A stretch of 64,000 bases of DNA from an uncultured Clostridia bacterium (lineage in GTDB: Bacteria > Bacillota > Clostridia > TANB77 > RGIG9151). Below are positions 10,141-46,186 of the stretch, one piece after another; within the stretch, counting starts at the first letter, position 1; each line of letters begins with the position of its first letter. The stretch is from assembly GCA_934500865.1 (NCBI GenBank), contig CAKSUD010000001.1:1509-65508 (forward strand), written 5' to 3'. The position numbers and the translations under genes are program-made. The notes under the pieces were generated by a model. It ran no database searches and was not told the origin of the DNA. It worked only from the letters and a program-made list of their open reading frames with translations.

Positions 10141-10981
10141 ATTGATGCGTCCACATCATTATATAAAAAATGGCTTGTTATTTTTACCGCTTGTTTTTAG
10201 CGGAAATTTATTAAATAAAGACTTCCTTATTGTATTAATGATAGGCTTTTTGGCTTTTTGTCTTTCTTCATCAGTTATTTATATAATAAATGATATTTTT
10301 GATGTGGAAAAAGATAAATTGCATCCTAAAAAATGCAAAAGACCAATAGCATCGGGTGAAATTTCAATTAAATTTGCTTGGGTTTTAGCTATTTTATTAC
10401 TAGCAGTAGTTGTGGCATTAAATTACATTATTGCAAGTAACAACATTGGTGCTTGGGTACTTTTAGGATTATATATTGTGCTAAACTTTGCATACAGTAT
10501 GGGATTAAAACAAGTACCGTTATTAGATATTGCAATATTAGTTTCTGGATTTTTAATTAGAGTCTTATATGGAGCAAGTATAATAAGTGTTGTTGTTTCT
10601 AATTGGCTATACTTAACTGTAATTGCTATGGCTTTTTATTTGGGATTAGGAAAAAGAAGAAATGAAATGGCTAGACAGGGAAGTGATACAAGAAAAGTTT
10701 TGCAATTTTATAATTATAATTTTCTAGATAAGAATATGTATTTGGCTAATGCACTTACAATTGTTTTTTATTCGCTTTGGTGTGTTGATGCCGGAACTAT
10801 TGCGAGATTTTCGAACAAATTGATTTGGACAGTTCCACTAGTTATGCTAATAAGTATGAAATATAGCTTAAATATAGAAGGAAATTCAGATGGAGACCCT
10901 GTTGATGTGGTATTGAGTGATAAGATTTTAGTAGTGTTAGCTATGATTTATGTAATTTCGATATTAATTCTTACGTATTAA
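10115..10981 (+). CDS. UbiA-family prenyltransferase, decaprenyl-phosphate phosphoribosyltransferase (DPPR synthase)-like
   Basis: RPHHYIKNGLLFLPLVFSG plus the NDIFDVEKD (NDxxDxxxD) motif. Polytopic, 288 aa. Start overlaps the end of the upstream gene. Confidence 0.65.
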   Translation: MKKICSIIKLMRPHHYIKNGLLFLPLVFSGNLLNKDFLIVLMIGFLAFCLSSSVIYIINDIFDVEKDKLHPKKCKRPIASGEISIKFAWVLAILLLAVVVALNYIIASNNIGAWVLLGLYIVLNFAYSMGLKQVPLLDIAILVSGFLIRVLYGASIISVVVSNWLYLTVIAMAFYLGLGKRRNEMARQGSDTRKVLQFYNYNFLDKNMYLANALTIVFYSLWCVDAGTIARFSNKLIWTVPLVMLISMKYSLNIEGNSDGDPVDVVLSDKILVVLAMIYVISILILTY

Positions 10982-28308: not shown

Positions 28309-29682
28309 TTAGCCCTCTATAAGTTCTTCACCGATTTTATACACATTTCCGGCACCTATTGTGAGTAGTATGTCTCCGGATTGTAGGTTATCTTTAAGAT
28401 AATTTTCTATATCAGAAAAATCTTTTATATAGATTGCATTATTTGAAGTTTTTTGTATTTCATTTACTAAATCTTTAGAATTTATTTCTCCGGTATCTTT
28501 TTCACGTGCAGCATAGATGTCTGTAATTATTACTTTATCTGCATTATAAAAAGCATTTGCAAAATCATTTAAAAGTGCTTTTGTTCTAGAATAGGTGTGA
28601 GGTTGGAAAACGCACCAAACCTTTTTCATATTTCTGTTTTTGGCTGCAAGTAATGTTGCTTTTATTTCAGATGGATGATGTGCGTAGTCATCGTATATTT
28701 CGGCACCGTTTAATAGTCCTTTTTTTTCAAATCTTCTTTTTGCACCACAAAAAGTTTTTAGTGATTCAATCACTTTTGACAAATCCAATTTATATATATC
28801 GCATACTGCAATACACGCTAGGGAGTTATATATATTGTGCATACCAGGAACAGTTAAAACAACTTCAGATATAAATTTATTATCTATATATAAATTATAA
28901 TATGTTTTATCTCGCTCAAATATTATATTTTGTGCAGAATATTTTGCCATATTTTTTATTCCGAAAGAGACGACATTGCATTTTGTATTTTTAAATAATT
29001 CATATGAATTTTTATCATCTGCATTAAGCACAGCAAAGCCATCACTCGGCAATTTATCTAAGAATTTTTGGAATGATGATTTTATATGATTTATATCTTT
29101 ATAATAATCCAAATGGTCAGCTTCTACATTTAAAACAACAGAAACTTTAGGAGAAAGTTCTAGAAAACTCTCAACATATTCACAAGCTTCAGTAATCAAG
29201 AAATTACTTTGACCTATTTTATAATTCCCATCGATTAGTGGTAACTCTCCACCAACAGTGATGGTTGGGTCTTTTTCACATTCTATAAAAGCGGTAGAAA
29301 TCATTGAGGTTGTTGTGGTTTTTCCATGAGTTCCTGCGACTGCAATTGTATCGGGAAAGAGTCTTGTGATTTCTCCAAGTAATACAGAGCGCTCAATTAA
29401 AGGAATGTTTTTTTTAGTTGCTGCTATGTATTCAGGATTATCTTTCTTTATTGCTGCTGTAAAAATTACAGCAGAAGCATTTCCTATATTTTCTTCGCTA
29501 TGACCTATCGTTACTTTTATATCATTTTCTCTTAACTTCTTTATTATATTACTATCATTTGCGTCGGAACCTTGAACTGTATACCCTTTGTTCTTTAAGA
29601 TTTCGGCAAGTCCGCTCATACTAATTCCGCCAATTCCTATCATATGTATAGTTGCCGGTGGTAAAATTTTATCTAAAAACAT
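28309..29682 (-). CDS. murC: UDP-N-acetylmuramate--L-alanine ligase
   Basis: IHMIGIGGISMSGLAEIL and GTHGKTTTT motifs. Confidence 0.9.
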   Translation of the reverse strand: MFLDKILPPATIHMIGIGGISMSGLAEILKNKGYTVQGSDANDSNIIKKLRENDIKVTIGHSEENIGNASAVIFTAAIKKDNPEYIAATKKNIPLIERSVLLGEITRLFPDTIAVAGTHGKTTTTSMISTAFIECEKDPTITVGGELPLIDGNYKIGQSNFLITEACEYVESFLELSPKVSVVLNVEADHLDYYKDINHIKSSFQKFLDKLPSDGFAVLNADDKNSYELFKNTKCNVVSFGIKNMAKYSAQNIIFERDKTYYNLYIDNKFISEVVLTVPGMHNIYNSLACIAVCDIYKLDLSKVIESLKTFCGAKRRFEKKGLLNGAEIYDDYAHHPSEIKATLLAAKNRNMKKVWCVFQPHTYSRTKALLNDFANAFYNADKVIITDIYAAREKDTGEINSKDLVNEIQKTSNNAIYIKDFSDIENYLKDNLQSGDILLTIGAGNVYKIGEELIEG

Positions 29683-29890
29683 AAGATACCTCCAAATTAA
29701 ATAGTATATGTATATTATATATTCTTATGAATATATTATTCAATAGGTTGAAAAAAAGTTACGTGTTTTCTTTTTGGTAATATTTATTGGCATAAGAAAA
29801 ATTTGAAAAATATTTACAAATTCCGGAAGGTTTTTTCAAAATTATGTAGAAATATAGCAGTATAAAAATAATCATAAGGTGGTGCACATT

Positions 29891-30193
29891 ATGGAAGTAA
29901 CAAACGTAAAGGTAAAAGTAATGCATACTGAAGGTAACTTAAAAGCTTACGCAACAATCACTTTCGATGATGAGTTTGTTGTAAAAGATATCAAAGTTAT
30001 TGACGGTAAAAAAGGCATATTTATTGCTATGCCTAGCAAGCCAATTAAAAACAGAAAAGTTGAAGATGTAGAAAGCGCTGAAGAAATGGAAAGATTACAC
30101 AAAGATATTGCGCATCCTATTAATCCACAAGCGAGAGAAAAGATTCAAACAGCTATATTAAAGGCTTACGAAGAAGCTCTAAAAGCTGAATAA
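29891..30193 (+). CDS. spoVG: Septation protein SpoVG
   Basis: MEVTNVKV...[17 protein letters not shown]...IAMPS...DIAHPIN. The track starts 12 nt earlier at a GTG; RBS AAGGTGGTG supports the ATG at MEVT. Confidence 0.85.
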
Positions 30194-30207
30194 GAGTTGA
30201 AAAAATT

Positions 30208-30236
30208 AGTCCACTGGAATCCAGTGGACTTTTTTT
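30208..30236. terminator. Bidirectional terminator AGTCCACTGGaatCCAGTGGACTTTTTTT
   Basis: Perfect 10-bp stem followed by a T-run. Confidence 0.8.
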
Positions 30237-31062
30237 ACCTTACCAATTCTAACAAAGGCTCAGACGAAACGGAAACTTTATTTTCAAAAATTTGCTCAAT
30301 TGTATTTACTATTTTTTTATTGTAGTTTTCACTTTCAAAATGAAGAAATACTTTTCTTGGTGCAAGAGTAATTAGGGAACTTATTAATACATCTTCATTA
30401 TTTAGATTATTTTGCTCTTTAGTTTCTATAAACTCCTCAAAGCAACTTTTTGTAATATTTTTATTTCTTTCATTTAATATTAAGTATTCACCATTTTCTT
30501 CAAATATAATGTGTAGTTTTGGGCATCTGTTTTTTTGAGTTTCAACGAAGAACTTTAGCATATCTATAAATTCTTTATATTCTTCTTGAAGTTTATAATC
30601 TTCTACTACTTTTTGGATTAATTCAACCAGCATTTTCTTATAATTCAGTAATCTAAATTGGATAAAACCGGAAAGATTTAAATAAGTTTCTTCGGTTAAA
30701 TATTCCAAAATATTTTGCTTTATTAAGAAACGTCTTTTCAGTAAAATTAACATTCTTAAAAAATCATTATCGTGATTCTTAATTAGTTTTGTAGCAGTAT
30801 TGAAAATACTAAATTTTTCAGAAGAATTGAAAAACGGATAATCTGAAAAGATTAAATTTTTTAATAGTTTTTCTTCCTCGAAATTAATAATATATTCTGT
30901 TAAAACTTCCGATACCTTTAGCTTTAAAAATGATTCGTCATCTGAAAAGAAAGCCAATTTATTTTTATATGCTCTGCAAGAAAATTTTTCACATTGTTCT
31001 TTTTTGGCAATGTCATGTATATAATTAAAATTGTCTTTAATATCAATAATAACCTTTTGCAT
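30235..31062 (-). CDS. Hypothetical protein, possibly YtxC-like sporulation protein
   Basis: 275-aa soluble alpha-rich protein. Assignment is by recollection of family features only. Confidence 0.3.
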   Translation of the reverse strand: MQKVIIDIKDNFNYIHDIAKKEQCEKFSCRAYKNKLAFFSDDESFLKLKVSEVLTEYIINFEEEKLLKNLIFSDYPFFNSSEKFSIFNTATKLIKNHDNDFLRMLILLKRRFLIKQNILEYLTEETYLNLSGFIQFRLLNYKKMLVELIQKVVEDYKLQEEYKEFIDMLKFFVETQKNRCPKLHIIFEENGEYLILNERNKNITKSCFEEFIETKEQNNLNNEDVLISSLITLAPRKVFLHFESENYNKKIVNTIEQIFENKVSVSSEPLLELVR

Positions 31063-31461
31063 ATTGAACCCCCTGAAATTGGTACAATTTTTAACTTTAG
31101 TTTAAGTATGAATCAAAAGAATTCATATTATACTATGTTTAGAAATATATTAGTGTGAAATGAAAGGCCTTCTAGCCTTATTAGTAAGTACAAGAATCCG
31201 GGTATAAAAGCACTTTGGGCTTTTTTGAAAAAATTTATTCCTAAACACAAGTTACTTATCGGCATTTGTATAAAAAGCTTAAGTAAAAAATTATGACAAA
31301 AAAATCTTTTTTTTTTTATTAAATTATGTTTTTTGTTTACAAACGTGTTTTTTTTTATTACAATGAATGAGTATTGAATTATTGAAAATATTGAGTTCTC
31401 TCAATGTTTATACTTTTAGAAAAAAATAAAGAAAAATACATTAGAAGAGAGGAGCAAGAAA

Positions 31462-32781
31462 ATGAAGATATTGATGTTATCATGGGAGTATCCACCAAGA
31501 ATAGTAGGAGGAATTTCCAGAGTTGTTTATGATCTAGCTCAAAATTTAGGTGAAAAAGGTAATGAAGTGCATGTTGTTACATGTATGGATAAAAACACAA
31601 AAGAATTTGAAAAGGATAAGAACGTATATGTTCACCGTGTCCATACTGTTGGACCTGATACAAAGGGTGATTTCTTAAAACAAACCTTGCATATGAATTT
31701 TGCAATGGTAGAAAGAGCTGTTGAAGTTATAAATAGTGTTGGAAAATTCGATGTTATCCACGCTCATGATTGGTTAGTTGCATTCGCTGCAAAAACATTA
31801 AAGCACGCGTATAAAACTCCATTAGTTTGCACAATTCACGCAACAGAGCATGGAAGAAATAATGGAATTCATAATGAAATGCAAGAATACATTCATAACA
31901 GTGAATGGTGGCTTACTTATGAATCTTGGAAGGTTATTTGCAATAGTCAATATATGAAGAATGAAATTACAAATATTTGGGGACTTCCTGAATCAAAAAT
32001 AAGAATAATATTTAATGGTGTGGATGTTCACAAATTTGATGGAATAGAAAGAGATTGGGAATTTAGAAGAAGATTCGCAATGGATAATGAAAAGATAGTA
32101 TTCTTCGTTGGAAGAATGGTTAATGAAAAAGGTGTTCAAGTTTTAATAGATGCAATGCCTAAGATTTGTCAATATTATAATGATGTTAAATTTGTATTTG
32201 CCGGAAAAGGTCCTTTACTTGATGAATTTAAGGCAAGAGCTTGGGCTACAGGATATGCACATAAAACATTATTTACAGGATATATAAGCGACGAAGATTT
32301 GTTAAAATTGTATAAATGCGTTGATGTAGCTGTTTTCCCTAGCTTATATGAACCATTTGGAATTGTTGCATTAGAAGGAATGGTTGCAAATGTTCCTACA
32401 GTTGTTTCACAAGCCGGAGGACTTGGAGAAATAATTAACCACGGATATGATGGAATGAAGGCTTATACAGGAAATGCAAACTCACTTGCAGATTGCATAC
32501 TTGAATTACTTCATAACCACAACAACATGACAGAGTCAATAAGAAATAATGCAATGAGAAAGGTACATGAAATGTATAATTGGAATGGTATCGCTGACCA
32601 AACATATGCAGTGTATAAAGAAGTTGTTGAAGAAGCAAAGAATATTTCTTGGGAGAACACAGAATTAAAAGAAGGTTTGAAAGAATTAAATGATAAGAAG
32701 GTAATTCATACTGTTGTAGAGAATAAGACTACTACTAAGAAATCTTCTAGAAAAGATGAAAAGTTACAAAAAATTGGTTAG
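31462..32781 (+). CDS. GT4 glycosyltransferase (GlgA/GlgM-like retaining GT)
   Basis: MKILMLSWEYPPRIVGGISRVV, the EPFGIVALEGM (E-x7-E) motif, and a Lys-rich C-terminal tail. Confidence 0.65.
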   Translation: MKILMLSWEYPPRIVGGISRVVYDLAQNLGEKGNEVHVVTCMDKNTKEFEKDKNVYVHRVHTVGPDTKGDFLKQTLHMNFAMVERAVEVINSVGKFDVIHAHDWLVAFAAKTLKHAYKTPLVCTIHATEHGRNNGIHNEMQEYIHNSEWWLTYESWKVICNSQYMKNEITNIWGLPESKIRIIFNGVDVHKFDGIERDWEFRRRFAMDNEKIVFFVGRMVNEKGVQVLIDAMPKICQYYNDVKFVFAGKGPLLDEFKARAWATGYAHKTLFTGYISDEDLLKLYKCVDVAVFPSLYEPFGIVALEGMVANVPTVVSQAGGLGEIINHGYDGMKAYTGNANSLADCILELLHNHNNMTESIRNNAMRKVHEMYNWNGIADQTYAVYKEVVEEAKNISWENTELKEGLKELNDKKVIHTVVENKTTTKKSSRKDEKLQKIG

Positions 32782-32966
32782 TTAAGAAATAACATCTCCT
32801 AATACCGCAAATAGCTTTATTGTTTATAATAATGTATAGAAAGGGGAACGAGGAGAAAATCGTTCTCTCTTTTGGTTCAAAAAGCAAAAAAATGTTTAGG
32901 GGGAGTTATTTAAGTCTAGTAGACTTAGATATTTTTAACAAAAGTTGAATTTAAGGAGGTAGTTTA

Positions 32967-35408
32967 ATGAAGGCAATTATTATGGCAGGAGGCGCAGGTT
33001 CAAGATTAAGACCACTTACATGTGGAAGACCAAAGCCTATAGTACCTATTATGAACAAGGCTGTAATGGGGAGAATTATTGAGTTATTAAAGAAGAATGG
33101 TATTACAGATATAGGAGTTACACTTCAATTTTTACCTGAAAAGATTGAAGATATGTTTGGCGATGGAAGTGAAATGGGAGTTAATATAAAGTATTTCATA
33201 GAAGATTCACCGCTAGGAACTGCCGGAAGTGTTAAAAATGCTGAAGAATTTTTAGATGATACATTTGTTGTAATAAGTGGAGATGCTTTAACAGATATAG
33301 ATTTGACTAAGGCAATTGAATTCCATAAATCTAAAAATACAATTTGCACATTGGTTTTAAAAGAAGTTGCAGTACCTCTTGAATATGGTGTAGTAATGAC
33401 TGATGAAACCGGAAAAATTACCAGATTTTTAGAAAAGCCAAGTTGGGGAGAAGTATTTAGCAATCTTGCTAATACAGGTATGTACATATTAGAACCAAAG
33501 GCTTTGTCTTATTTTGAAAAGAATAAGAAGTTTGACTTTAGCCAAGACTTATTCCCATTACTTATGAACGAGGGAAATGATTTATATGGCTACACAACAA
33601 GCGATTATTGGTGCGACGTTGGAGATATAGGTTCATATATCCAATCACACATAGATATATTAGAAGGAAAAGTAAAAATCGACCTTGGTACTGAGTTTGA
33701 AAACAGAAACGGAATTTATGTTGGTAAAAATGTTGAAATCGACCCAACAGCTAAAATTACTGCACCGGTAGTTATCGGAAACAATTGTAAAATCGGAAGG
33801 AACGTGGAACTTCACGAATTTACAGTGCTTGGTGAAAATGTTGTTATTGATGATAACGCAACAATAAAGAGAAGCATTATTTGGCAAAATACACATGTTG
33901 GACCTAATTCAAGAATTAGTGCGGGAATTTTGTGTTACGGAAATAATGTTAAATCAAATGTTACAGTTTTAGAAGAAGCTGTTATTGGTGATGAATGTCA
34001 AATAAAAGACAGAGCAATTGTTAAATCCGGAATTAAGATTTGGCCGAATAAAATTATTCAAACAGCTACTGAAGTTAGTGAAAGCATTATTTGGGGAACT
34101 AAAGTAAGTAGAACTTTGTTTGGCAAATCAGGAATTACAGGAGAAATGAATATTGAAATTACTCCTGAATATGCTGCAAAACTTGCAGTTGCATATTCAT
34201 CTGTATTAAAGCCTGGAATGAAACTTGCAGTATCAGCAGATAGTTCGGCTGCCGCTTCATTACTTAAAACTTCAATGTTGGCAGGTGCAACTTCTACCGG
34301 AGTTGAAGTGTTTGACTTAGGTCATACAATGCTTCCGATAGTTAGAAATGTTATTAATTTCTTTGGTATGGATGGTGGAATTCATATTTCACTAGAACCT
34401 CAAAATGATAATAGAATAAGAATAAACTTCTTAGATTCTAAGGGAGTTAATATTCCAAGAGGACTTGAAAGAAAGATTGAAAACATGTTTGTAACCGGAG
34501 AGTTTAGACGTGTAAATGTTGAAAAAATTAAAGAAACAAATATGCTTGAAAACTATAATTATTTCTATATGCAAAACTTGTTAAACACATTAGACTTAGA
34601 TGCTATTCGTAAGAATAATGTAAAAGTTGTAATAGGAAAATGTGACAACTTTGTATATGAAATGATGGAAAAAGTGTTAAGAGATTTAAATTGCACAATT
34701 ATCAACGAAAGAAGAGACAATGGAGAAGACGATTTAAGTATCTTAAGCCAGAAGGTTGTAAACAATCAAGCTGATTTTGGAATTAGAGTAAGTAATGATG
34801 CTGAATCTATGATTTTAGTAGATAATGAAGGAAATGTTATAAAGGATGATTTATATACAGCATTGCTTTCAATAATATCTGTTAAATTAAAAGAAGTAAA
34901 TAAGATTGTTGTTCCATTTACTACAACAGAAGTTATGGAACAAATCGCAACAAAGATAAATGCGGGAATTGTTAGAACTAAAACAAGTCAACAAGAACAC
35001 ATGAGTACATTAATTGCTAACTCTACTGCTGAAGCTAAGAAGAACTTTATATTAAATTATGATGTTTTTGCAGCAACAGCAAAGATTATAAATTACATCT
35101 CAATAGAAAAAACATCTGTGGCTGACCTTATAAAATCTATCCCTGAATTCCATTTAATTAAGAAGAATATTGATTGTCCTTGGGATGCAAAGGGAAAAGT
35201 CATGAGAGCGTTGACTCAAGAAAAGACAGATAATAAGTTAGAATTATTCGAAGGTGTAAAGATTCATCACGACAAAGGATGGGTACTTGTATTACCAGAC
35301 GCAGACGAACCTGTATGCACAGTATATACTGAAGGCGTTTCTGCTGAAGTTGCTGAAAGCTTATCTGAAATGTATATAGACAAAATTAAAAACATTATTG
35401 TTCAGTAA
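32967..35408 (+). CDS. Sugar-1-phosphate nucleotidyltransferase - left-handed beta-helix - degenerate phosphohexomutase fusion
   Basis: [11 protein letters not shown] nucleotidyltransferase signature. Hexapeptide repeats span aa 250-380. A PGM/PMM-like C-terminal part has FGKSGITG and [10 protein letters not shown] in place of GIMITASHNP. Confidence 0.7.
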
Positions 35409-35422
35409 TAATAAATTGAAGA

Positions 35423-35459
35423 GTGGATGTCCAAAAGCTTATTTGGGCATCCATTTTTT
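35423..35459 (+). terminator. Rho-independent terminator (GGATGTCC...GGGCATCC + TTTTTT), followed by a second hairpin TAGGTCgaaaGACCTA
   Basis: Stem-loop followed by a T-run. Confidence 0.65.
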
Positions 35460-35509
35460 GTGCTTTTTAAAACTTTATAGGTCGAAAGACCTATTTTATT
35501 ATTTAAATA

Positions 35510-35538
35510 TTGCAAATGTGGAGAGAAAAGGATAATAT
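35510..35538 (+). promoter_or_regulatory. Sigma-A promoter of dcw cluster (TTGCAA - 17 nt - TAATAT)
   Basis: Motifs read directly, upstream of mraZ. Confidence 0.5.
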
Positions 35539-35548
35539 AATCTTGCAA

Positions 35549-35572
35549 GTGGTTGAAAGTGGAGTGAAGTGG
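35549..35572 (+). promoter_or_regulatory. MraZ operator: three GTGG direct repeats at 10-bp spacing
   Basis: GTGGttgaaaGTGGagtgaaGTGG lies between the -10 element and the mraZ start. Confidence 0.7.
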
Positions 35573-35601
35573 TACGATACTCCATGAAAGAGGTGAGAAG
35601 T

Positions 35602-36033
35602 TTGTTCATAGGCGAATATAGACATAGTTTAGATGTTAAAGGCAGAATTATTGTTCCGGCTAAGTTTAGAGATGGCTTGGGCGATAAATTTGTATTGACT
35701 AAAGGCTTAGACGGTTGCTTATTCGCATATTCGAAAGAAGAATGGGCAAATTTCGAAGAAAAAATCAAATCTTTGCCGCTTACAAATAAGGACGCGAGAG
35801 CATTCGTAAGGTTCTTCTTTGCAGGAGCAGTTGAATGCGAAATCGATAAGCAAGGACGTACATTGATACCACCAATGCTAAGAGAACATGCAGGATTAAA
35901 TAAAGACCTTGTTATAATTGGTGTTTCTAATAGAGTTGAAATTTGGAGCCAAGACAAGTGGGACAGCTATAGCGAAGCCGAGGATTTGGAAGCTGATGAG
36001 TTGGCTGAAAAAATGGCAATGCTAGGCATCTAA
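35602..36033 (+). CDS. mraZ: Transcriptional regulator MraZ
   Basis: A TTG start after RBS AAAGAGGTGA gives [23 protein letters not shown]. The track ORF starts 33 nt earlier. Confidence 0.85.
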
Positions 36034-36062
36034 AAGAAAAGGTTATTTTAAGGAGTGTAAAA

Positions 36063-36998
36063 ATGGAATTTGTACATAAACCGGTACTTCTAAATGAATG
36101 CATTTGTAATCTTAATATTAAACCAAATGGTATTTATTTGGACGGGACTTTAGGTGGTGCAGGTCATTCCTTAGAGATTGCAAAGCTGTTAAATAATGAA
36201 GGAACTTTAATTGGAATAGATAGAGATATAACTGCCATAAATGTTTCACGCAGTAGACTTTCTGATGTGAAACCTACTGTAAATTTAGTTAACGACAATT
36301 ATAAGAATATAAAAGATGTATTAAGTAATTTGAATATTACAGGAGTAGATGGGATATTGCTCGACTTGGGAGTTTCATCTTATCAACTTGATACTCCCGA
36401 GCGAGGCTTTAGTTATCGTTTTGATGCTCCGCTAGATATGAGAATGAATACAAATGATGAACTTACCGCTGAATATGTGGTAAATCAATATACTAAAGAA
36501 GATTTAATAAGAATCTTTCGTGATTATGGCGAAGAGAAGTGGGCAGTGCGCATTGCAGACTTTATCGTAGATAAACGTAGGAATACTCCTATAAAAACAA
36601 CATTTGAACTTGTTGATATTATAAAAGCAGCGATTCCGGCTAGTGCTAGAATTGATGGCGGTCATCCTGCGAAACGAGTATTTCAAGCCATAAGAATCGA
36701 AGTGAATGGAGAAATCGAGAGCCTCAGAAAGGCGATTTTCGATGCAATAGATGTGTTAAATCCAAAAGGCAGAATATGTATTATAAGCTTTCATTCATTA
36801 GAAGATAGAATTGTTAAAGATGTTTTTAATGAGTCGGCTAAAGGATGTACTTGTCCGCCTGACTTTCCAAAATGTGTTTGCAATAAGAAAAAAACTGTAA
36901 AGATTTTAAGTAAAAAACCGATAATTTCTACGGAAGATGAGTTAAATGATAATTTGAGAGCTCATAGTGCAAAGTTAAGAGTTGCCGAAAAAATTTAA
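36063..36998 (+). CDS. rsmH: 16S rRNA (cytosine1402-N4)-methyltransferase
   Basis: HKPVLLNE ... GGAGHS ... LGVSSYQLD motifs. Confidence 0.9.
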
Positions 36999-37055
36999 GA
37001 CTGTTAAAGGGCATCCCCCTTTTAACATATATACATAAGAAAAAAATAATTAATT

Positions 37056-37137
37056 TACAAAAGAAAAGTGAAACAAAATACAAAAGCTAAAAAATAAAAA
37101 ACTACAAAAGAAAAAAATCCTATAAAATTTACAAAAG
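37056..37137 (+). repeat. Four direct repeats of TACAAAAG spaced 23-27 nt in A-rich leader
   Basis: Repeats at 37056, 37079, 37103 and 37130. Confidence 0.5.
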
Positions 37138-37217
37138 AAGTTTTAAATTACTAAGGAGAAGACGGGGGCAACATTTGTAGCCCCTGTTTTAGTATTAATG
37201 TTATGGAGGTGAGAGCT

Positions 37218-37682
37218 ATGGCACCACTTAGGCAAGAAGATTATATATATGAAGAATTTTTAAATGAGCCGGTAGCTCAACCCAAAAAACAAAAAGAACC
37301 AAAAAAGCAAGTTGTACCAAAGGGAAAAAATAAGGTTAAGAAAAAAGTTCTTTTAGGAGTATTATCATTTTCAATAGCTCTTACGATAGTATATCGTTAT
37401 GCAATGCTTAATAATATGAGTATGGAAAACATTAAATTAAAAAAGGAACTTGCTGAACTTAATAATGTTAATGCCCAACTTCAATTAAAGGCTGAACAAA
37501 GTGTTAATTTAAGTTATGTTGAACAATATGCACAAGAAAATTTAGGACTTCAAAAGCCCCAAAATTATCAAATTGAGTATATTAATGTAAACAAGCAAGA
37601 TTTAATTGATAATAAAGTTACTAATGAGAATAAAAATTGGTTTGAAGAAATATTATTTAATATCATTGAATTTTTTAAGTGA
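37218..37682 (+). CDS. ftsL: Cell division protein FtsL (septum formation initiator family)
   Basis: RBS GGAGGTG before MAPLRQ. Single TM helix followed by a coiled coil (NIKLKKELAELNNVNAQLQLKAEQ). Confidence 0.6.
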   Translation: MAPLRQEDYIYEEFLNEPVAQPKKQKEPKKQVVPKGKNKVKKKVLLGVLSFSIALTIVYRYAMLNNMSMENIKLKKELAELNNVNAQLQLKAEQSVNLSYVEQYAQENLGLQKPQNYQIEYINVNKQDLIDNKVTNENKNWFEEILFNIIEFFK

Positions 37683-37798
37683 GTATTTTATTTGGCAGTA
37701 GCAAAGCTTTTACTACGTAGAATATGTAATCAGGCTTTATACCATTCAAATTTTAATACTCTTTTTTTCTACCTATACTAGAATAAAAGTGGAGGGTT

Positions 37799-39970
37799 TT
37801 GATAAAATTGAAAAAGGATGCTATGAAACTTGGAATTAGAAAGAGGATGCTTGGGCTATTTATTGGAGTTATAGTTTTATTTGTTTTATTAATTGGTCGT
37901 CTTGCTTGGTTGCAACTTGTAAAAGGTGCATGGCTTCAAGAACTTGCATATGATCAACAAACAAGAGACAGGACAATAAATTCAGCGCGTGGTACGATAT
38001 ATTCATCTGATGGAAAGGTACTTGCAATTAGTGCGTCTATGGAGACGATTAGTGTAACTCCTACACAGGTAAAAAATCCTGAGGCGTTGGCTAAAGAATT
38101 AACTGATTTATTAGGTCTTGAATATGACAATGTTTATGAGAAAATCACATCAAAAACAGCTCTAGTGACAATTGCAAAGAATGTTTCAAAAGAAACTACC
38201 GATTTGCTTAGGAACTGGGTATCTGAAACGAAAACAGAGGGTGTAAAAATAGATGAATCTACTAAAAGATATTATCCTAATAATAGCTTAGCTGCACACG
38301 TTTTGGGATTTGTTGGTACAGATAATCAAGGACTTTATGGAATAGAAAAGACATACGAGGATATATTAACAGGTATTCCTGGAAGAATTATTTCGGAAAC
38401 GGATGGAAAAGGAAACGATATTCCTCTTAGTTCGGAGCAATATTATGCTCCTCAAAACGGAAGAAATTTGGTACTGAGTATAGACTCATCAATTCAATAT
38501 TTTGCTGAAAAGTATTTAGAAACTGCAGTGATAGACAATGCTTGTGAAAAGGGCGGAGTTGCAATAGTAATGAAGCCATCAACAGGTGATGTACTTGCAA
38601 TGGCGGTTAAGCCTGATTTTAATCCTAATGAGGCGTTTGGACCATATACTGATGAACAGGCTATTTCATGGAATGTTACTCCGACTGAAGAAAAAAGAAA
38701 AATTAGAGAAAATATATGGAGAAATAAGGCTATTTCTGATACCTATGAGCCCGGTTCTACATTTAAGGTTATAACAACAAGTGCTGCACTTGATTCTGGT
38801 ATTGCTACTTGCGAGGACCATTTTAATTGTAGCGGTTCGATTACAATTGGTGGAGCAAAGATGAAATGTTGGAGATATTATCGTCCGCATGGTACACAAA
38901 CTTTTACAGAAGCTTTGGGTAATTCCTGTAACCCTGTTTTTATACAACTTGGACTCAAAATGGGCAAAGAAATTTTCTATAAATATGTAGATGCTTTCGG
39001 CTTTACTGAAAAGACCGGTATAGATTTGCCAGGAGAGGCTAGCGGTGTTTTCCATTCAATCCAAAAGGTTGGAGATACTGAACTTGCGACTGCTGCTTTT
39101 GGTCAGCGATTTAATATCACTCCTATCGAATTAATAACAGCAATTTCGGCAGTAGCTAACGAAGGAAAACTTATGGAGCCAAGGTTGGTTAAAGAAATTA
39201 GAGATGATGACGGAAATATTTTATCTACAAACGAACCTAAGGTGGTTCGTCAGGTAATATCTAAACAAACTGCTGAAACTGTTTGCGGTATGATGGAGAA
39301 GGTAGTATCTAAGGGAACCGGAGGAAATGCATATATTGAAGGATATGATGTTGGCGGAAAGACAGGTACAGCAGAACAAGGAACAGGTCCTGCTACTTGG
39401 TATGTAGCTTCGTTTGTGGGAATAGCACCTGCAAATAATCCGGAAATTGCAGTACTAGTGGCTTTGTTTGATCCGAAGGGGGCTAGTCATGGTGGAGGAG
39501 CTATTGCTGCTCCGGTAGTAAAGGAAATTATTGAAGATACAATGGGATATTTAAAGATTCAACCAAATTCTAATGGCGAAAATTCAGGAGTAATAGTCCC
39601 TGAAGTAAGAGGGCTTACTGTAAATGAGGCAAAGGCTAGATTAGAAGAGGCAGGATTAAAATGTAATATAAATGGAAAAGTAGATGACACATCTACTATA
39701 AAAGATCAAATTCCAAAGCCCAATATAGAGGTAATTGCAAATTCTTCTATAATTTTATATACTGAAGAGGACGCAGAAAAAGCAATGGTTACTGTGCCTG
39801 ATGTTTTTGGAAAGAGCGTGTCTGAGGCAACAAATCTTCTTAAAAATGTTTCATTGAACATTTTGGCGGAAGGGTTGGGAACTGCAAGTGAACAAGTACC
39901 GAAAGCGGGTACAAAGGTGGAGCGTGGGAGCATAGTAACAGTAAAGTTTAAGATAACTGAGGTAGATTAA
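37799..39970 (+). CDS. Class B penicillin-binding protein with two PASTA domains (PBP2B / SpoVD-like)
   Basis: GSTFKV, SCN and KTGT motifs plus two C-terminal PASTA repeats. The exact start is uncertain. Confidence 0.8.
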   Translation: MIKLKKDAMKLGIRKRMLGLFIGVIVLFVLLIGRLAWLQLVKGAWLQELAYDQQTRDRTINSARGTIYSSDGKVLAISASMETISVTPTQVKNPEALAKELTDLLGLEYDNVYEKITSKTALVTIAKNVSKETTDLLRNWVSETKTEGVKIDESTKRYYPNNSLAAHVLGFVGTDNQGLYGIEKTYEDILTGIPGRIISETDGKGNDIPLSSEQYYAPQNGRNLVLSIDSSIQYFAEKYLETAVIDNACEKGGVAIVMKPSTGDVLAMAVKPDFNPNEAFGPYTDEQAISWNVTPTEEKRKIRENIWRNKAISDTYEPGSTFKVITTSAALDSGIATCEDHFNCSGSITIGGAKMKCWRYYRPHGTQTFTEALGNSCNPVFIQLGLKMGKEIFYKYVDAFGFTEKTGIDLPGEASGVFHSIQKVGDTELATAAFGQRFNITPIELITAISAVANEGKLMEPRLVKEIRDDDGNILSTNEPKVVRQVISKQTAETVCGMMEKVVSKGTGGNAYIEGYDVGGKTGTAEQGTGPATWYVASFVGIAPANNPEIAVLVALFDPKGASHGGGAIAAPVVKEIIEDTMGYLKIQPNSNGENSGVIVPEVRGLTVNEAKARLEEAGLKCNINGKVDDTSTIKDQIPKPNIEVIANSSIILYTEEDAEKAMVTVPDVFGKSVSEATNLLKNVSLNILAEGLGTASEQVPKAGTKVERGSIVTVKFKITEVD

Positions 39971-39975
39971 GGAGA

Positions 39976-41439
39976 GTGTTTAATTTGAAAATTAGGGAGA
40001 TATTAAAAGGAGTAGAAATAGTTGAACTTAATGTTAGTTTAGATGAGGAAATATGTGATATAACCGGTGATTCAAGAAATATAGTGGAAGGTTCGGCATT
40101 TTTATGCTTAGAGGGTACAAAATTCGATGGGCATCAATATGCAAAAGATGCATTAGAAAAAGGAGCTAAGGTTTTAATTACTCAAAAGAAAATAGATATT
40201 GAAAATGAGGCTAAGTTTGTTAGAATAGAACCCGGTAGAAAATCAATTGCAAAAATTTCTTGTAATTTCTTTGATAACCCATCTTATAAGTTTAAGCTTA
40301 TCGGAATTACCGGAACTAAGGGAAAAACTACTACAACATATATGATAAAGTCCATTTTGGAAAGTAAAGGACTTAAAGTGGGATTAATAGGAACAATAGA
40401 GTCAAGAATTGGTGATAAAAAGCTTAAAACATCTAGTAATACAACACCTGATGCAATTGAGTTACAAAGATTGTTTGCCATAATGGCTGATGAAAATGTA
40501 GATGCTGTTGTTATGGAAGTTTCTTCTCATGCACTTGATTTAGATAGAGTGTATGGAAGTAATTTCGCTTATGCTGCATTTACAAATTTAAGTCAAGACC
40601 ATTTAGACTATCACAAAAATTTTGAAAATTATTATCAAGCTAAGAAAATTTTGTTTGGTATGTGTAAGAAAAGCTTTATAAATGTTGACGATGAATATGG
40701 GAAAAGATTATTTGGCGAAATTTCAGGAGATAAAAAATCTTTTGCTGTAGATAACCATGCGGATATTGAAATAGAAAATATTGAAATTACATCGGGATAT
40801 GTAAGCTTTACAGAAAAATCTGAAAACGAGGAAATAAAATATAAAGTAAAAATTCCGGGAAAATTTTCTGTGTATAATGCGCTCACTGCTATATCTATTG
40901 CAAAAGAGTTTGGATGCAGTCCAAAAGAAATTCAAGCCGGATTTGACGGACTAAAGGTACCTGGAAGAAGTGAAATAGTAGATATAGGAACAGATTATAC
41001 TGTTATGGTAGATTATGCTCATTCTCCGGATAGCTTAAAAAATATTCTGCTTGCTACTCGTGAATATGTAAAAGGAAGAATTATATGTGTATTTGGTTGT
41101 GGTGGAGACAGAGATAAAACAAAGCGTCCTATTATGGGAGAAATCTCGGGAAAATTGGCTGATATTACTATTGTTACATCTGATAATCCAAGAAGCGAAG
41201 ACCCTGAGACTATTGTAGATGAAGTAGAGGAAGGGGTAAAAAAAGTTACTAATAATTACTTTAGGGAATCAGACAGAGCAAAGGCTATATATAAAGCACT
41301 TTCTATTGCTAAAAAGGATGATGTAATTATTATTGCAGGCAAAGGGCATGAACCATATCAAATTTTAAATACAGGAACAATACATTTTGATGATAGGGAA
41401 CAAGTTGTAGAACAATATAAAAAATTAACAAAAGTGTAA
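39976..41439 (+). CDS. murE: UDP-N-acetylmuramoyl-L-alanyl-D-glutamate--2,6-diaminopimelate ligase
   Basis: GITGTKGKTTTT motif and the Mur ligase family signature. Confidence 0.9.
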   Translation: MFNLKIREILKGVEIVELNVSLDEEICDITGDSRNIVEGSAFLCLEGTKFDGHQYAKDALEKGAKVLITQKKIDIENEAKFVRIEPGRKSIAKISCNFFDNPSYKFKLIGITGTKGKTTTTYMIKSILESKGLKVGLIGTIESRIGDKKLKTSSNTTPDAIELQRLFAIMADENVDAVVMEVSSHALDLDRVYGSNFAYAAFTNLSQDHLDYHKNFENYYQAKKILFGMCKKSFINVDDEYGKRLFGEISGDKKSFAVDNHADIEIENIEITSGYVSFTEKSENEEIKYKVKIPGKFSVYNALTAISIAKEFGCSPKEIQAGFDGLKVPGRSEIVDIGTDYTVMVDYAHSPDSLKNILLATREYVKGRIICVFGCGGDRDKTKRPIMGEISGKLADITIVTSDNPRSEDPETIVDEVEEGVKKVTNNYFRESDRAKAIYKALSIAKKDDVIIIAGKGHEPYQILNTGTIHFDDREQVVEQYKKLTKV

Positions 41440-41461
41440 ATGAAAAGGGAGTTGAGTAGTT

Positions 41462-42430
41462 GTGAAATTACAAGTAGGATTATTGGTAGTATCTTTTTTA
41501 GCTTCGTTAATTGCCGGGCTTTTAGTAATGCCGATATTAAAGAAATTAGGAGTTAGCCAACATATTAGAGATGATGGTCCCGAATCACATTTAAAAAAAG
41601 AAGGTACTCCAAGTATGGGAGGAATAATCTTTTTGGCGGCTATGTGCTTTGTCGGATTTATGGCTATGATAAAATATCCTACAAGTAGGCAAACATTATT
41701 AATCTTAGTAGGTTCTACTTTGATTTTTGGATTTATCGGATTTATCGATGATTATTTGAAAATAAAAAATAAACGTTCACTTGGGCTATATGCTTGGCAA
41801 AAGATATTGCTTCTTTTAATAGCATCAGGTGCGGTCACATATTGTATATTAGAAGTTCTTAACCTTGGTACAGCTACATATATTCCTTTTATAAGACAAT
41901 TTTATGATTTGAATTATTATTTCTTTGTACCATTTGCTATTTTGGTATTATTATCTACTACTAATGTTGTTAATATAACTGATGGGCTAGATGGTCTCGC
42001 AGTCGGAATAATTGTTGCTATTATGACTTTCTTTACAATACTGGCTATTTCTTTAGGAAATAATCCGGTTATGATTTTCTCTGCGATTATGACAGGTGCT
42101 TGTTTAGGATTTTTAGTTTATAATATGAACCCTGCTAAAGTGTTTATGGGAGATACAGGTTCGTTAGCACTTGGTGGTGCGATAGGTACAGTTTCTTTAG
42201 TTTTACAAATGCCAATACTTCTTATATTTGTTGCGGGTATATGCGTTATAGAGGCATTATCTGATATTATTCAAGTTGTATATTTTAAGTTGTCAGGTGG
42301 AAAAAGAGTTTTTAAAATGGCTCCACTTCATCATCACTTAGAACTTAGCGGGTGGAGTGAGAAAAAAATTGTTTGGCATTTTTGGATATGCACAATTGTT
42401 TTTTGTGTTATTACATTTATTTTGTTATAA
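41462..42430 (+). CDS. mraY: Phospho-N-acetylmuramoyl-pentapeptide transferase
   Basis: 322-aa polytopic protein. NLTDGLDGLA and MGDTGSLALGG motifs. Confidence 0.9.
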   Translation: MKLQVGLLVVSFLASLIAGLLVMPILKKLGVSQHIRDDGPESHLKKEGTPSMGGIIFLAAMCFVGFMAMIKYPTSRQTLLILVGSTLIFGFIGFIDDYLKIKNKRSLGLYAWQKILLLLIASGAVTYCILEVLNLGTATYIPFIRQFYDLNYYFFVPFAILVLLSTTNVVNITDGLDGLAVGIIVAIMTFFTILAISLGNNPVMIFSAIMTGACLGFLVYNMNPAKVFMGDTGSLALGGAIGTVSLVLQMPILLIFVAGICVIEALSDIIQVVYFKLSGGKRVFKMAPLHHHLELSGWSEKKIVWHFWICTIVFCVITFILL

Positions 42431-42451
42431 AAATAATAGGGGAGTGTTACA

Positions 42452-43555
42452 ATGAAGTCTAAGCTAAAACCTTTTGATTATACATTATTTACTGTGGTTA
42501 TAATTCTATATGGATTAGGTTTACTCATGGTGCTTAGTGCAAGTTCACATCTTGGCGTATTAAAATATGGCAGTCCCTATTACTTTTTTATAAGACAGTT
42601 TTTGTTTGGCGTTATTGGAATTTGTGTAATGCTATTTTTATCAAGAATAAATTATAAAGTTTATAAGAATTTTTCAGGATTAATATTTCTAGGTGCTATA
42701 GGGTTACTATGTCTAGTATTGGTACCTGGAATAGGTTCTGGAGAAATTCGTGGTGCAAAAAGATGGATATATGTTGGTTTTAACCTTCAACCATCGGAAG
42801 TAGCTAAACTTGCAATTATTATATTTTTAAGTGCAAGAATTTCTATGAATCCAGAAGGAATAAAGAAGTTTTGGACCGGTTTAGTTCCATATTTCCTTAT
42901 AATAGGCGTGGTTGCAGGACTTTTATACTTAGAGCCACATTATAGTGCCATCGGAATTATAGGTTTGATTTCTGTAATAATTTTGTTTGCCGGTGGTGCA
43001 AAATTTTCTCATTTCGTTAGTATAGGTTTAGCGCTTGCACCTGTTGGTATTGCCGGAATAATCATAGCAAAATACAGATTAGACCGTATTGTAAGTTTTT
43101 TAGACCCTTGGTCAGACCTCCAAGATGGTGGATGGCAGGTAATACAATCATTATATGCACTAGGTAGTGGAGGATTGTTTGGACTAGGTCTTGGGCAAAG
43201 CAGACAAAAGTATACATATCTTCCCGATGCACATAACGACTTCGTTTTAGCAATATGGGGAGAGGAACTTGGATTTATAGGAATGGTATTTGTTATAATA
43301 CTATTTGGAATACTTATTTGGAGAGGTGTTGTTATTGCAACTAAAGCTCCGGATATGTTCTCAGGACTTGTTGCAATAGGTATAACTATGCTTATTGCTA
43401 TACAGATAATTTTAAATGTATTAATTATAACAAGTTGGTTCCCGGTAACAGGTATGCCGGTACCGTTTATGAGTTATGGTGGAACATCACTTCTGATTTT
43501 TATGTCCTGTATAGGAATATTATTAAATATTTCACGGTATGGAAAGAATGAGTAG
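42452..43555 (+). CDS. SEDS family FtsW/RodA/SpoVE
   Basis: 367 aa with 10 TM helices. Sits in the dcw position after mraY. Confidence 0.8.
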   Translation: MKSKLKPFDYTLFTVVIILYGLGLLMVLSASSHLGVLKYGSPYYFFIRQFLFGVIGICVMLFLSRINYKVYKNFSGLIFLGAIGLLCLVLVPGIGSGEIRGAKRWIYVGFNLQPSEVAKLAIIIFLSARISMNPEGIKKFWTGLVPYFLIIGVVAGLLYLEPHYSAIGIIGLISVIILFAGGAKFSHFVSIGLALAPVGIAGIIIAKYRLDRIVSFLDPWSDLQDGGWQVIQSLYALGSGGLFGLGLGQSRQKYTYLPDAHNDFVLAIWGEELGFIGMVFVIILFGILIWRGVVIATKAPDMFSGLVAIGITMLIAIQIILNVLIITSWFPVTGMPVPFMSYGGTSLLIFMSCIGILLNISRYGKNE

Positions 43556-43576
43556 TAGGAAAGGGATGAAATATAT

Positions 43577-46186
43577 ATGTCAAAACTTGTAGTAATAGAT
43601 GGAAACAGTATAATGAACAGAGCTTTTTACGGACTTTCCGGAAGAAATATGCTAATGACTAAAGACGGAATTCACACAAATGCTGTTTTCGGATTTCTAA
43701 CAATTCTATTTAAAATTTTATCCGAGGATAAACCAGATTATTTGGTAGTTGCTTTTGACCTTAGAGCACCTACTTTTCGTCATAAAATGTATGATGGATA
43801 TAAGGCACAAAGAAAAGGGATGCCGGATGAACTTGCTGAACAGATGCCTATAATAAAAGAAGTTTTAGATGCAATGAACATTTCAAGAATTGAAATGGAA
43901 GGATTTGAGGCAGATGATATTTTAGGCACACTTTCTAAAAAGGCTAAAGCTAAAAATATAGAGACAATTTTGTTTACAGGGGATAGAGATTCGTTCCAAT
44001 TGATAGAAGATGGAATTACTGTAAAAATGCCTGTAACAAAGGGTGGGAAGACTGAGACTGAAATTTATAATTCGGAAAAAATATATGAAAAGTATGGAGT
44101 GAGTCCAATTGAACTTATTGAAGTAAAAGGGCTTATGGGAGATGCTTCGGATAATATTCCCGGTGTACCCGGAATAGGGGAAAAAACTGCACTTTCGTAT
44201 ATTCAAGAATTTAAAACTATAGACAACCTTTATGAAAACTTAGATAGCGATGTTGTAAAACCAAAGGCGAGAATTTCATTAAAAGAAAATAAAGATTTAG
44301 CATATTTAAGCAGAACTCTTGCTGTTATTAATACCGACATTCCTGTTGATTTTTCAGAGGATTATAAAATTAATGAATATAATAATGACAAGCTGTATGA
44401 AATTTTTAATAAACTTGAATTTACTTCATTTATAAAAAAATTGAATCTCGTTTCTACTAAGGGAGCGAGTGTAGAGAATTTTGAACCTGTAAAAGGTGAA
44501 AAACTACTAGACGTTTCAAAATTGGAGCATATTAGTGAGTTTGCTTTCTTTGCTTTAGAGGGAAATAAAACACAGATTGGAATTTTTTCAGATAATAAAG
44601 TGTATTGCATAGATGTGAATGATGATGCTACATTAAAAAGTATTTTTGAGAGTGAAGCTAAAAAATATAGTATTAATACAAAGCCATTATATGTTAACTT
44701 ACTAAGTAAGGGTATTAAGATAAATAATCTTGCTATGGATTTAGCGATAGCACAATATGTTATTAATCCGAATTTTGTTGTTGATGATATTGAAAAACTT
44801 ACATTAGAAAAAATAGGTTTTGATTTATCATCTATAAAGGATAAGGAAAGCGACCAAATAAGCTTCTTTGAAACACAAAAGGCAGTAGATAACAATGAAT
44901 ATGTATGTTCATGTGCTAGGGCAGTTTGGCAATTAAAAGACTGGTATTTAGATGAAATAAAGAAAAACAATCAAGAAAAATTGTTTTATGAGATAGAAAT
45001 GCCGTTAATTGAAGTGCTTGCCGGTATGCAAATTGCTGGAATGAAAGTTGAAAAAAACTTGCTGATTGATTATGGTAGGGAACTTCAAGAAAAAATAAAT
45101 ACACTTGAAAAAGAGATTTTTGAACTTGCAGGAGAGGAATTCAATTTAAAATCTCCTAAGCAATTAGGTGATTTACTGTTTGATAAGCTTGGTCTTCCTG
45201 CTGGTAAAAAAACTCATAGAGGGTACGCGACTGATGCTGAAACCCTAGAAGGACTTCGTGATAAGCATCCCATTATAGACAAGATACTTGAACATAAGCA
45301 ATATATAAAGCTTAAATCTACCTATATAGATGGCTTGGAGGGAGTAATTAATCCGAATACTGGAAGGATACACTCTAATTTTAATCAGACTATTACGGCA
45401 ACAGGGCGACTTAGCAGTACTGAACCTAATCTTCAAAATATTCCTGTTAGAATGGAAGCAGGTAAAAAAATAAGAAAAATGTTTGTGCCTGATGATGGAT
45501 ATGTTTATATTGATGCCGACTATTCACAGATTGAACTTAGAATTTTAGCTGATATGGCAAATGATGAGGTTATGATAAATGCATTTAATAATGATGAGGA
45601 TATTCATACGACAACTGCATCTCAAATTTTCCATATGAAGAAAGAAGAAGTTACACCAGAGCTAAGAGCAAAAGCAAAGGCTGTAAATTTCGGAATTGTA
45701 TATGGTCAAGGCGAATTTTCTTTGGGACAAGATTTAGGAATATCGAGAAAAGAAGCTAAAAAGTACATTGATATGTATTTCGAACATTTTTCGGGTATAA
45801 AAGATTATATGAGAAACAACATAAATTTTGCGAAGGAAAAAGGATATGTTGAAACAATCTTTAATAGAAGAAGATATGTACCAGAGATAAAATCAAGCAA
45901 TTTTAATATTAGGTCTTTTGGTGAAAGAATTGCTATGAATATGCCGATTCAAGGAAGTGCAGCAGATATAATAAAAATTGCTATGGTAGAAGTATATAGA
46001 AGATTACAAGGTAAGAAATCTAAGCTTATTTTACAGGTACATGATGAGCTTTTGGTTGAGGCGGAAAAAAGCGAAGTAGAAGAGGTAAGTAAGATTGTTA
46101 AAGAGTCAATGGAAAACGCGGTTAAACTTAAGGTATTACTTAAAGTCGAGTTAAATACTGGTGATAGTTGGTTAGATGCAAAATAA
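43577..46186 (+). CDS. polA: DNA polymerase I
   Basis: 5'-nuclease N-terminus, DYSQIELR, RAKAKAVNFGIVYG and QVHDELL motifs. 869 aa. Confidence 0.9.
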   Translation: MSKLVVIDGNSIMNRAFYGLSGRNMLMTKDGIHTNAVFGFLTILFKILSEDKPDYLVVAFDLRAPTFRHKMYDGYKAQRKGMPDELAEQMPIIKEVLDAMNISRIEMEGFEADDILGTLSKKAKAKNIETILFTGDRDSFQLIEDGITVKMPVTKGGKTETEIYNSEKIYEKYGVSPIELIEVKGLMGDASDNIPGVPGIGEKTALSYIQEFKTIDNLYENLDSDVVKPKARISLKENKDLAYLSRTLAVINTDIPVDFSEDYKINEYNNDKLYEIFNKLEFTSFIKKLNLVSTKGASVENFEPVKGEKLLDVSKLEHISEFAFFALEGNKTQIGIFSDNKVYCIDVNDDATLKSIFESEAKKYSINTKPLYVNLLSKGIKINNLAMDLAIAQYVINPNFVVDDIEKLTLEKIGFDLSSIKDKESDQISFFETQKAVDNNEYVCSCARAVWQLKDWYLDEIKKNNQEKLFYEIEMPLIEVLAGMQIAGMKVEKNLLIDYGRELQEKINTLEKEIFELAGEEFNLKSPKQLGDLLFDKLGLPAGKKTHRGYATDAETLEGLRDKHPIIDKILEHKQYIKLKSTYIDGLEGVINPNTGRIHSNFNQTITATGRLSSTEPNLQNIPVRMEAGKKIRKMFVPDDGYVYIDADYSQIELRILADMANDEVMINAFNNDEDIHTTTASQIFHMKKEEVTPELRAKAKAVNFGIVYGQGEFSLGQDLGISRKEAKKYIDMYFEHFSGIKDYMRNNINFAKEKGYVETIFNRRRYVPEIKSSNFNIRSFGERIAMNMPIQGSAADIIKIAMVEVYRRLQGKKSKLILQVHDELLVEAEKSEVEEVSKIVKESMENAVKLKVLLKVELNTGDSWLDAK

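Follow-up and report, generated by a model that had tools for sequence, protein, structure and literature searches.

A widespread fusion of a sugar nucleotidyltransferase to a decayed phosphohexomutase, with a possible role in bacterial glucan synthesis

We analyzed a 64-kb stretch of DNA (64,000 nucleotides, here called the window) from an uncultured Clostridia bacterium (GenBank contig CAKSUD010000001.1, positions 1,509 to 65,508), and in particular the protein encoded by its open reading frame (ORF) at 32967–35408. This 813-residue protein joins a sugar-1-phosphate nucleotidyltransferase (NT) domain, a left-handed beta-helix and a degenerate phosphohexomutase, and its probable role is to provide activated glucose for the making of a storage or envelope glucan. 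On balance we favor a scheme in which it acts as a nucleoside diphosphate (NDP)-glucose pyrophosphorylase, probably for UDP-glucose, that feeds a glucan synthase, with the dead mutase half serving as a regulatory or docking module. The NT domain and beta-helix would do the chemistry, converting UTP (or another NTP) and glucose-1-phosphate to NDP-glucose and pyrophosphate. The NDP-glucose would pass to the product of the co-transcribed upstream gene, a retaining glucosyltransferase of glycosyltransferase family 4 (GT4) resembling glycogen synthase, GlgM and Rv3032, which would build an alpha-1,4-glucan. In relatives, a branching enzyme of glycoside hydrolase family 57 (GH57) and a DUF4912 protein would complete the cluster.

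An original prediction, made from the DNA sequence alone, had given the position and length of this ORF, an intact NT signature and a hexapeptide beta-helix. All were borne out, with the 11-residue signature at residues 8–18. The NT domain matched PF00483 (NTP_transferase; E 1.9e-55, 188.5 bits against a cut-off of 21.2) and was followed by matches to the left-handed beta-helix and hexapeptide models PF25084, PF00132 and PF24894. Of the mutase models, PGM_PMM_I lay above its cut-off (residues 383–513, E 7e-19) and PGM_PMM_II just below it (residues 534–622, 26.3 bits versus 29.3). In an AlphaFold model built from 45 sequences, with a mean predicted local distance difference test score of 84.9, the beta-helix appears as short repeated strands across residues 250–376. 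No NCBIfam equivalog reached its curated cut-off for the protein: Arch_GlmM scored 194 bits (cut-off 439), glgC TIGR02091 135 bits (424.9), and the GlmU models TIGR01173 and NF010934 scored 81.8 (366.85) and 86.6 (450). Compared with its 95%-identical relative (locus L001), the gene has a ratio of nonsynonymous to synonymous substitution rates (dN/dS) of 0.03, which argues against a chance ORF. By part, the ratio was 0.015 for the NT domain, 0.029 for the beta-helix and 0.038 for the mutase-like domain, so the last of these is also under strong purifying selection.

The C-terminal half aligned end to end (residues 384–805) with the archaeal mutases 9du5, 1wqa and 2f7l (HMMER, E 3e-42 to 6e-33). 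The AlphaFold model matched the whole four-domain mutase fold, with a target-normalized template modeling score of 0.84 to the Thermococcus kodakarensis phosphoglucomutase (PGM; Foldseek). Both HMMER and MAFFT set the catalytic TASHNP loop of the references against ISLEPQ. The predicted register was therefore right and no serine occupies the catalytic position, while the replacement, first given as Leu or Glu, narrows to Glu477 and is not Leu. The metal loop, DGDADR in active mutases, reads SNDAES (residues 609–614) and keeps only the third metal position, as Glu613. The sugar loop GEENGG is deleted here and in Bacillota members, and the phosphate loop RASGTEP has become LPDADEP (residues 776–782). 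The FGxSGIxG loop, which had been said to persist, was found as FGKSGITG at residues 385–392, and the old cleft is partly kept (R670-T671-K672, K765 and the third metal Asp as Glu). By comparison, a PGM encoded on the minus strand of the same window (55267–56994) retains TASHNP143, DPDADR306 and RPSGTEP538. With the serine exchanged for Glu and three further signature loops lost, the alignments support a catalytically dead mutase half, and the claimed inactivation extends beyond the serine.

This architecture is shared by a large family. More than 7,500 homologues were found at E ≤ 1e-10, and the best 120 all cover 99–100% of the query. A one-genome-per-species scan returned at least 600 matching stretches, of which 592 of the 600 listed encode a relative, from taxa that include Bacillota, Cyanobacteria, Chloroflexota, Armatimonadota and Eremiobacterota. 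For locus comparisons we used 80 related loci, namely L001 and 79 more distant ones; in 78 of them the match spans query residues 1 to 799 or beyond. The C-terminal half alone, searched against 1.84 billion representatives, matched 298 clusters with E ≤ 1e-30; these are nearly always proteins of about 800 residues with the match starting near residue 378. A census of the loops covered 120 close homologues, the 80 loci of several phyla and about 101 representatives (clustered at 50% identity). The intact loop set was seen in no full-length member inspected (about 300). Among the representatives, the serine column holds Ser in 28, Glu in 8 and almost any residue in the remainder, and Glu replaces the third metal Asp in 76. 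L-P-D-x-x-x-P stands in place of the phosphate loop nearly throughout (Leu in 69, Pro in 96 and Asp in 85). One representative, P0153 (L084:416-2908), retains DGDADR and GGGENGGF while its Ser and phosphate loops are lost, which suggests a mutase domain caught part-way through decay.

Homologues are named mannose-1-phosphate guanyltransferase by NCBI and JGI, or mannose-1-phosphate guanylyltransferase/phosphomannomutase in IMG/JGI, and we take the fused family to correspond to KEGG K16881 and CDD cd05805. The window gene is thus an ordinary member of a multi-phylum, catalogued family for which we found no functional study. The original prediction had allowed that the fusion might prove to be a widespread and already characterized family, GlmU-like for example. 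It is widespread and catalogued; a characterization was not found, and the GlmU models score far below their cut-offs.

It is somewhat unlikely, in our estimate, that the dead mutase half is a structural spacer or oligomerization platform only, with no ligand or partner to sense. The residues of this half that are conserved across phyla are mostly fold-determining and common to active archaeal mutases, and the ligand-binding loops are gone; since acidic residues replace the phosphate-binding loop, a ligand is unlikely to bind in the ancestral way. Pure scaffolding accords less well with conserved residues that are specific to the family and absent from mutases, namely R460, W739, K742, R747 and P777-D778, together with H473, which was checked only in the 45-sequence alignment of 46–88% identical homologues. 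The low dN/dS of the domain and the full-length copies that persist in about 300 representative clusters also speak against a mere spacer. A regulatory or docking module, by analogy to the C-terminal domain of GlgC or to GMPPA, is the most likely role, in line with the binding or regulatory module first suggested.

The NT half looks active from its motifs. It carries a signature of the GxGxRLxPLTx5PK type (17 residues, 8–24), SGD106, EKPS156–159 and DVGD217–220, and the signature, D106, E156-K157-P158 and D217/D220 are invariant in 45 homologues. Its closest solved relative is Thermosynechococcus tlr0611 (PDB 8x7s; 39% identity, 129/334), deposited as a UTP-glucose-1-phosphate uridylyltransferase. 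When the first 240 residues were compared with tlr0611, human GMPPB and Leishmania GDP-mannose pyrophosphorylase, tlr0611 gave the highest score in 179 of 180 family members. These similarities suggest that the NT half is probably an NDP-glucose, and more particularly a UDP-glucose, pyrophosphorylase. The NCBIfam model ranked first for the 813-residue protein, man1P_GTase_Rv (NF052502), is also ranked first for tlr0611. The mannose-1-phosphate guanylyltransferase label therefore appears generic, and we rejected the NCBIfam ranking as a guide to sugar specificity.

Directly upstream on the same strand lies the GT4 gene, whose 439-residue product matches Glycos_transf_1, Glyco_transf_4 and Glyco_transf_5 (the starch synthase N-domain, E 3e-22). 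These domains and its PDB relatives fit a GT-B fold. Its E-x7-E motif reads EPFGIVALE and its dN/dS is 0.026. The best PDB matches were Pyrococcus abyssi glycogen synthase (E 2e-29) and, over the full length, GlgM (6tvp, E 5e-20). Other solved relatives are BshA-like enzymes and MshA, and sucrose-phosphate synthase aligns to the C-terminal half; the nearest solved relatives transfer glucosyl or N-acetylglucosaminyl groups. The top NCBIfam model, glgA_Coryne (TIGR02149), stayed below its cut-off (167.7 bits versus 302.4), and its homologues carry the names glycogen synthase or GT4 family protein. We propose that the two genes form a transcription unit of their own, ended by a predicted terminator ahead of mraZ. 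The candidate promoter upstream of the GT4 gene serves as a lead only, because promoter-like sites were no more numerous than in shuffled sequence. An Rfam scan of 29000–37500 at E ≤ 0.1 gave no riboswitch or leader RNA.

Gene neighborhoods in the related loci point to glucan synthesis. In 28 of the 80 loci the NT/pseudo-mutase gene is immediately preceded by a GT4 orthologue, so the pairing with a GlgM-like GT4 that was originally claimed is real and conserved. A GH57 branching enzyme (PF03065 with BE_C) is found in the cluster in 20 loci, and in 13 it is accompanied by a DUF4912 (PF16258) protein (e.g. L020:13714-14430, L041:3317-3883 and L062:2541-3191); we found no paper that connects DUF4912 with glucans. 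In four Bacillota genomes (Fictibacillus, Paenibacillus, an Alicyclobacillaceae isolate and a metagenome-assembled genome (MAG) labeled "Bacillota bacterium"), a single GH57-GT4 protein of about 930–1010 residues is encoded directly upstream of the orthologue, identified by Pfam in L062 and inferred in L069, L070 and L080 from cluster membership, ORF length and a GT4 tblastn match. An unfused GT4 orthologue clusters with GH57 in about 16 further loci. The alpha-glucan reading of the original prediction is thus backed by the clustered GH57 and DUF4912 genes and by the fusions. P0153, which came from the separate representative search, likewise adjoins a GT4.

In five other loci (L028, L030, L032, L036 and L056), a homologue of cyclic beta-1,2-glucan synthase follows about 55 nucleotides downstream of the NT/pseudo-mutase gene; the carriers are Natronincola, Alkaliphilus, Geosporobacter, Anaerosalibacter and one MAG. 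The identification draws on a PDB comparison for L028 only (L028:8509-14454, more than 1,980 residues, cut by the locus end; E 0 to 8rf9/8rf0) and on Pfam for L028 and L036. Cyclic beta-1,2-glucan synthase uses UDP-glucose. The neighbors in Armatimonadota, Chloroflexota and cyanobacteria offered nothing informative beyond GH57. The common denominator of these contexts is NDP-glucose supply to a glucan synthase.

Several points weigh against glucose supply to a glucan synthase with a regulatory mutase half. No GH57 or DUF4912 gene was found in the window by tblastn. The NT/pseudo-mutase gene stands alone in Acetivibrio and cyanobacteria, and Acetivibrio clariflavus has both genes, unlinked. As to the sugar, the top NCBIfam model (253.3 bits, cut-off 440) is that of the mycobacterial mannose-1-phosphate guanylyltransferase, albeit with a score far below its cut-off. 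The acidic residues in the old phosphate-binding loop argue against simple hexose phosphate sensing there, and with a predicted template modeling score of 0.59 the AlphaFold model does not fix the packing between domains. Our literature search found no functional or enzymatic study of the fused family, so that its nucleotide and sugar specificity are predictions.

The main alternative as to the sugar is a ManC-like GDP-mannose pyrophosphorylase paired with a GT4 mannosyltransferase for a mannose-containing envelope or spore glycan, with the mutase domain still dead. It is suggested by the NCBI and JGI names, by the leading NCBIfam model, by the PLGTAG and F-x-EKP motifs in common with GMPPB, and by the position of the pair between ytxC/spoVG and the cell-wall (dcw) cluster. 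We consider it unlikely. The NCBIfam score is far under the curated cut-off and tlr0611 yields the same ranking; the NT domain is nearer tlr0611 in all but one of the 180 members; and the conserved neighbors are GH57, GH57-GT4 fusions and cyclic beta-1,2-glucan synthase. Matches to mraZ and ytxC were absent from the 79 more distant loci, and because only L001 has ytxC upstream, the position beside ytxC and dcw is lineage-specific. A sporulation or cell-wall role deduced from position was rejected on the same ground, the candidate promoter being sigma-A-like.

It is distinctly less probable that the product of the pair is a small glucoside or compatible solute and not a polymer; candidates would be a compound of the sucrose, trehalose or glucosylglycerate type, or the maltose-1-phosphate made by GlgM. 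Many disaccharide synthases belong to GT4, the alignments to GlgM and sucrose-phosphate synthase fit such a product, and the window holds no branching enzyme. Fusion of the GT4 to a GH57 branching enzyme, or clustering with one, makes sense only for a polymer, and the N-domain of the GT4 matches the starch-synthase catalytic domain. In the window, the pair has no neighbor that encodes GlgE, a phosphatase or an acceptor-forming enzyme. Nor was a GlgE-like gene seen anywhere in the window or among the 40 largest neighbor-gene clusters of the related loci (25 shown, 7 in full). For the compatible-solute pathway that had been suggested, no support was found.

NDP-glucose supply to a glucan synthase can be set beside several known systems. 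The NT part resembles tlr0611, which we take to be a CugP-type UDP-glucose pyrophosphorylase linked to Synechocystis Sll1558/CugP, in its NT plus left-handed beta-helix and in the EKPS, NTG-YI-EP and LFP motifs; CugP, however, has about 390 residues and no mutase-like domain. GlgC likewise supplies NDP-glucose for glycogen with an NT followed by a beta-helix serving regulation, and the NT/pseudo-mutase gene occupies a glgC-like place beside a synthase and a branching enzyme. In contrast, GlgC has no mutase fold, and the partners here are GT4 and GH57, not GT5 and GH13. In function the proposed system parallels the GlgC supply step, and its transferase is CugP-like in build; by curated thresholds it belongs to neither family.

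GMPPA/GMPPB (7d72) and eIF2B gamma/epsilon share the NT plus beta-helix scaffold and use a dead module to regulate or scaffold a pyrophosphorylase fold, although that module is a paralogous NT subunit, whereas here it is a fused domain of another superfamily. The closest relatives of the C-terminal half in sequence and fold, the archaeal mutases 9du5 (T. kodakarensis PGM), 1wqa (P. horikoshii) and 2f7l (S. tokodaii), keep TASHNP, DGDADR, GEENGG and RxSGTEP, of which the 813-residue protein keeps none. PGM5 (aciculin), an inactive vertebrate PGM paralogue, is a precedent for a phosphohexomutase fold used in binding. GlmM bound to CdaA (7olh, among the fold matches) shows the mutase fold as a protein-binding regulator, though GlmM is still an active enzyme; both are stand-alone proteins of unrelated lineage.

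In Mycobacterium tuberculosis, Rv3032 (a GT4 alpha-1,4-glucosyltransferase) and Rv3031 (GH57) make alpha-glucan outside the classical GlgA/GlgB route. The likeness, drawn from their known description and not from sequence comparison, lies in a GT4 paired with a GH57-type enzyme. The window GT4 also has a GlgM-like (Rv1212c) N-terminus, as the full-length 6tvp alignment indicates, but neither the Rv3032/Rv3031 nor the GlgM system has a fused NT/pseudo-mutase partner. According to a 2024 review of alpha-glucan enzymes, what GT4 does in archaeal glycogen metabolism needs clarification, and an archaeal GT4 adjoining glgB and GH57 genes is possibly an uncharacterized glycogen synthase (PMC11046441). 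In a 2026 PNAS study of Synechococcus elongatus, the CipG pull-down through which GlgC was identified also brought down a "CugP-like protein", a possible member of the fused family (PMC13506006).

The original prediction had also drawn in a bona fide PGM and a GH15 enzyme some 20 kb downstream. Both genes are present (GH15 at 57231–59135), and the PGM has intact motifs. They are embedded among nadE, radA, disA and tRNA synthetase genes, and given these unrelated housekeeping surroundings a contribution to the pathway is unsupported; we rejected the functional link. That the 813-residue protein is truly bifunctional, its C-terminal domain converting hexose-6-phosphate to hexose-1-phosphate for channeling to the transferase, is very improbable: the JGI names, the complete four-domain fold, the residual cleft residues and a Ser at the catalytic column in about 28% of representatives can be cited for it, but that column is unconserved across the family and Glu477 here, DxDxDR has lost its Arg and two of its three metal Asp residues, Bacillota members lack the sugar loop, R-x-S-G-T-E-P is replaced by L-P-D-x-x-x-P throughout, and the genome has its separate, intact PGM.

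Some further features of the window were recorded. The dcw cluster downstream of the pair (35569–46186) is short, with mraZ, rsmH, an unconfirmed ftsL-like ORF, a class B penicillin-binding protein with PASTA domains, a murE-like Mur ligase, mraY and ftsW, with polA directly after them; no murD, murG or ftsA/ftsZ follows. A second Mur ligase gene, murC-like, lies upstream on the opposite strand (28309–29682). On the forward strand, an ORF of 594 residues (8356–10140) has no Pfam match even at E 0.001, and a UbiA-family prenyltransferase gene (10115–10981) begins inside its 3' end. Another forward-strand ORF (1390–3015, 541 residues) matches only the E1-E2 ATPase actuator domain and, being short for a P-type ATPase, may be a truncated or split gene.

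Table 1. Features of the two-gene unit in the window, and fusion ORFs in related loci.
Feature	Position	Strand	Basis
Candidate sigma-A-type promoter, TTTACA-17 nt-TACAAT, upstream of the GT4 gene	31336–31364	+	Consensus scan, 10/12 matches
GT4 retaining glycosyltransferase, glycogen-synthase/GlgM-like	31462–32781	+	Pfam, PDB matches
Weak hairpin and T-run in the 185-nt intergenic spacer; possible partial terminator or attenuator	32843–32868	+	Scan: 9 pairs, 4 GC
Fusion protein, NT - beta-helix - pseudo-phosphohexomutase	32967–35408	+	ORF, Pfam, NCBIfam, structure model
Sugar-1-phosphate nucleotidyltransferase catalytic domain, residues 2–232, predicted active	32970–33662	+	PF00483
Left-handed parallel beta-helix, hexapeptide repeats, residues 247–366	33705–34064	+	Pfam, model
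Pseudo-phosphohexomutase, residues 383–806, four-domain fold, four loops lost	34113–35384	+	HMMER, Foldseek, loop census
Glu477 codon, position of the catalytic phosphoserine	34395–34397	+	Alignments
SNDAES, remnant of the Mg2+-binding loop DxDxDR	34791–34808	+	Alignments
LPDADEP in place of the phosphate-binding loop RxSGTEP	35292–35312	+	Alignments
Strong intrinsic terminator before mraZ, closing the proposed two-gene unit	35417–35460	+	19-pair stem then T-run
GH57-GT4 fusion ORFs	L062:3203-6001, L069:2884-5919, L070:3176-5977, L080:3143-5980		

At the level of the family, the non-catalytic mutase half and the link to GT4/GH57 and beta-glucan synthases appear to have gone undescribed so far. 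We advance, tentatively and as a possibility, that the family is the GlgC equivalent of an unrecognized but widely distributed glucan route running from the NT/pseudo-mutase through GT4 to GH57, with DUF4912 in addition. The fossil mutase would then be an allosteric sensor or docking platform coupling NDP-glucose supply to the synthase, and the mannose or bifunctional label would misname thousands of genes. The names that these genes bear across several phyla imply GDP-mannose synthesis and, in IMG and KEGG, phosphomannomutase activity as well. If the proposal is true, a widespread annotation error would be corrected, and the nucleotide-sugar supply step of GT4/GH57-type bacterial glycogen synthesis would be identified. 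The family would also offer a clean bacterial case of an enzyme fold reused as a conserved non-catalytic domain.

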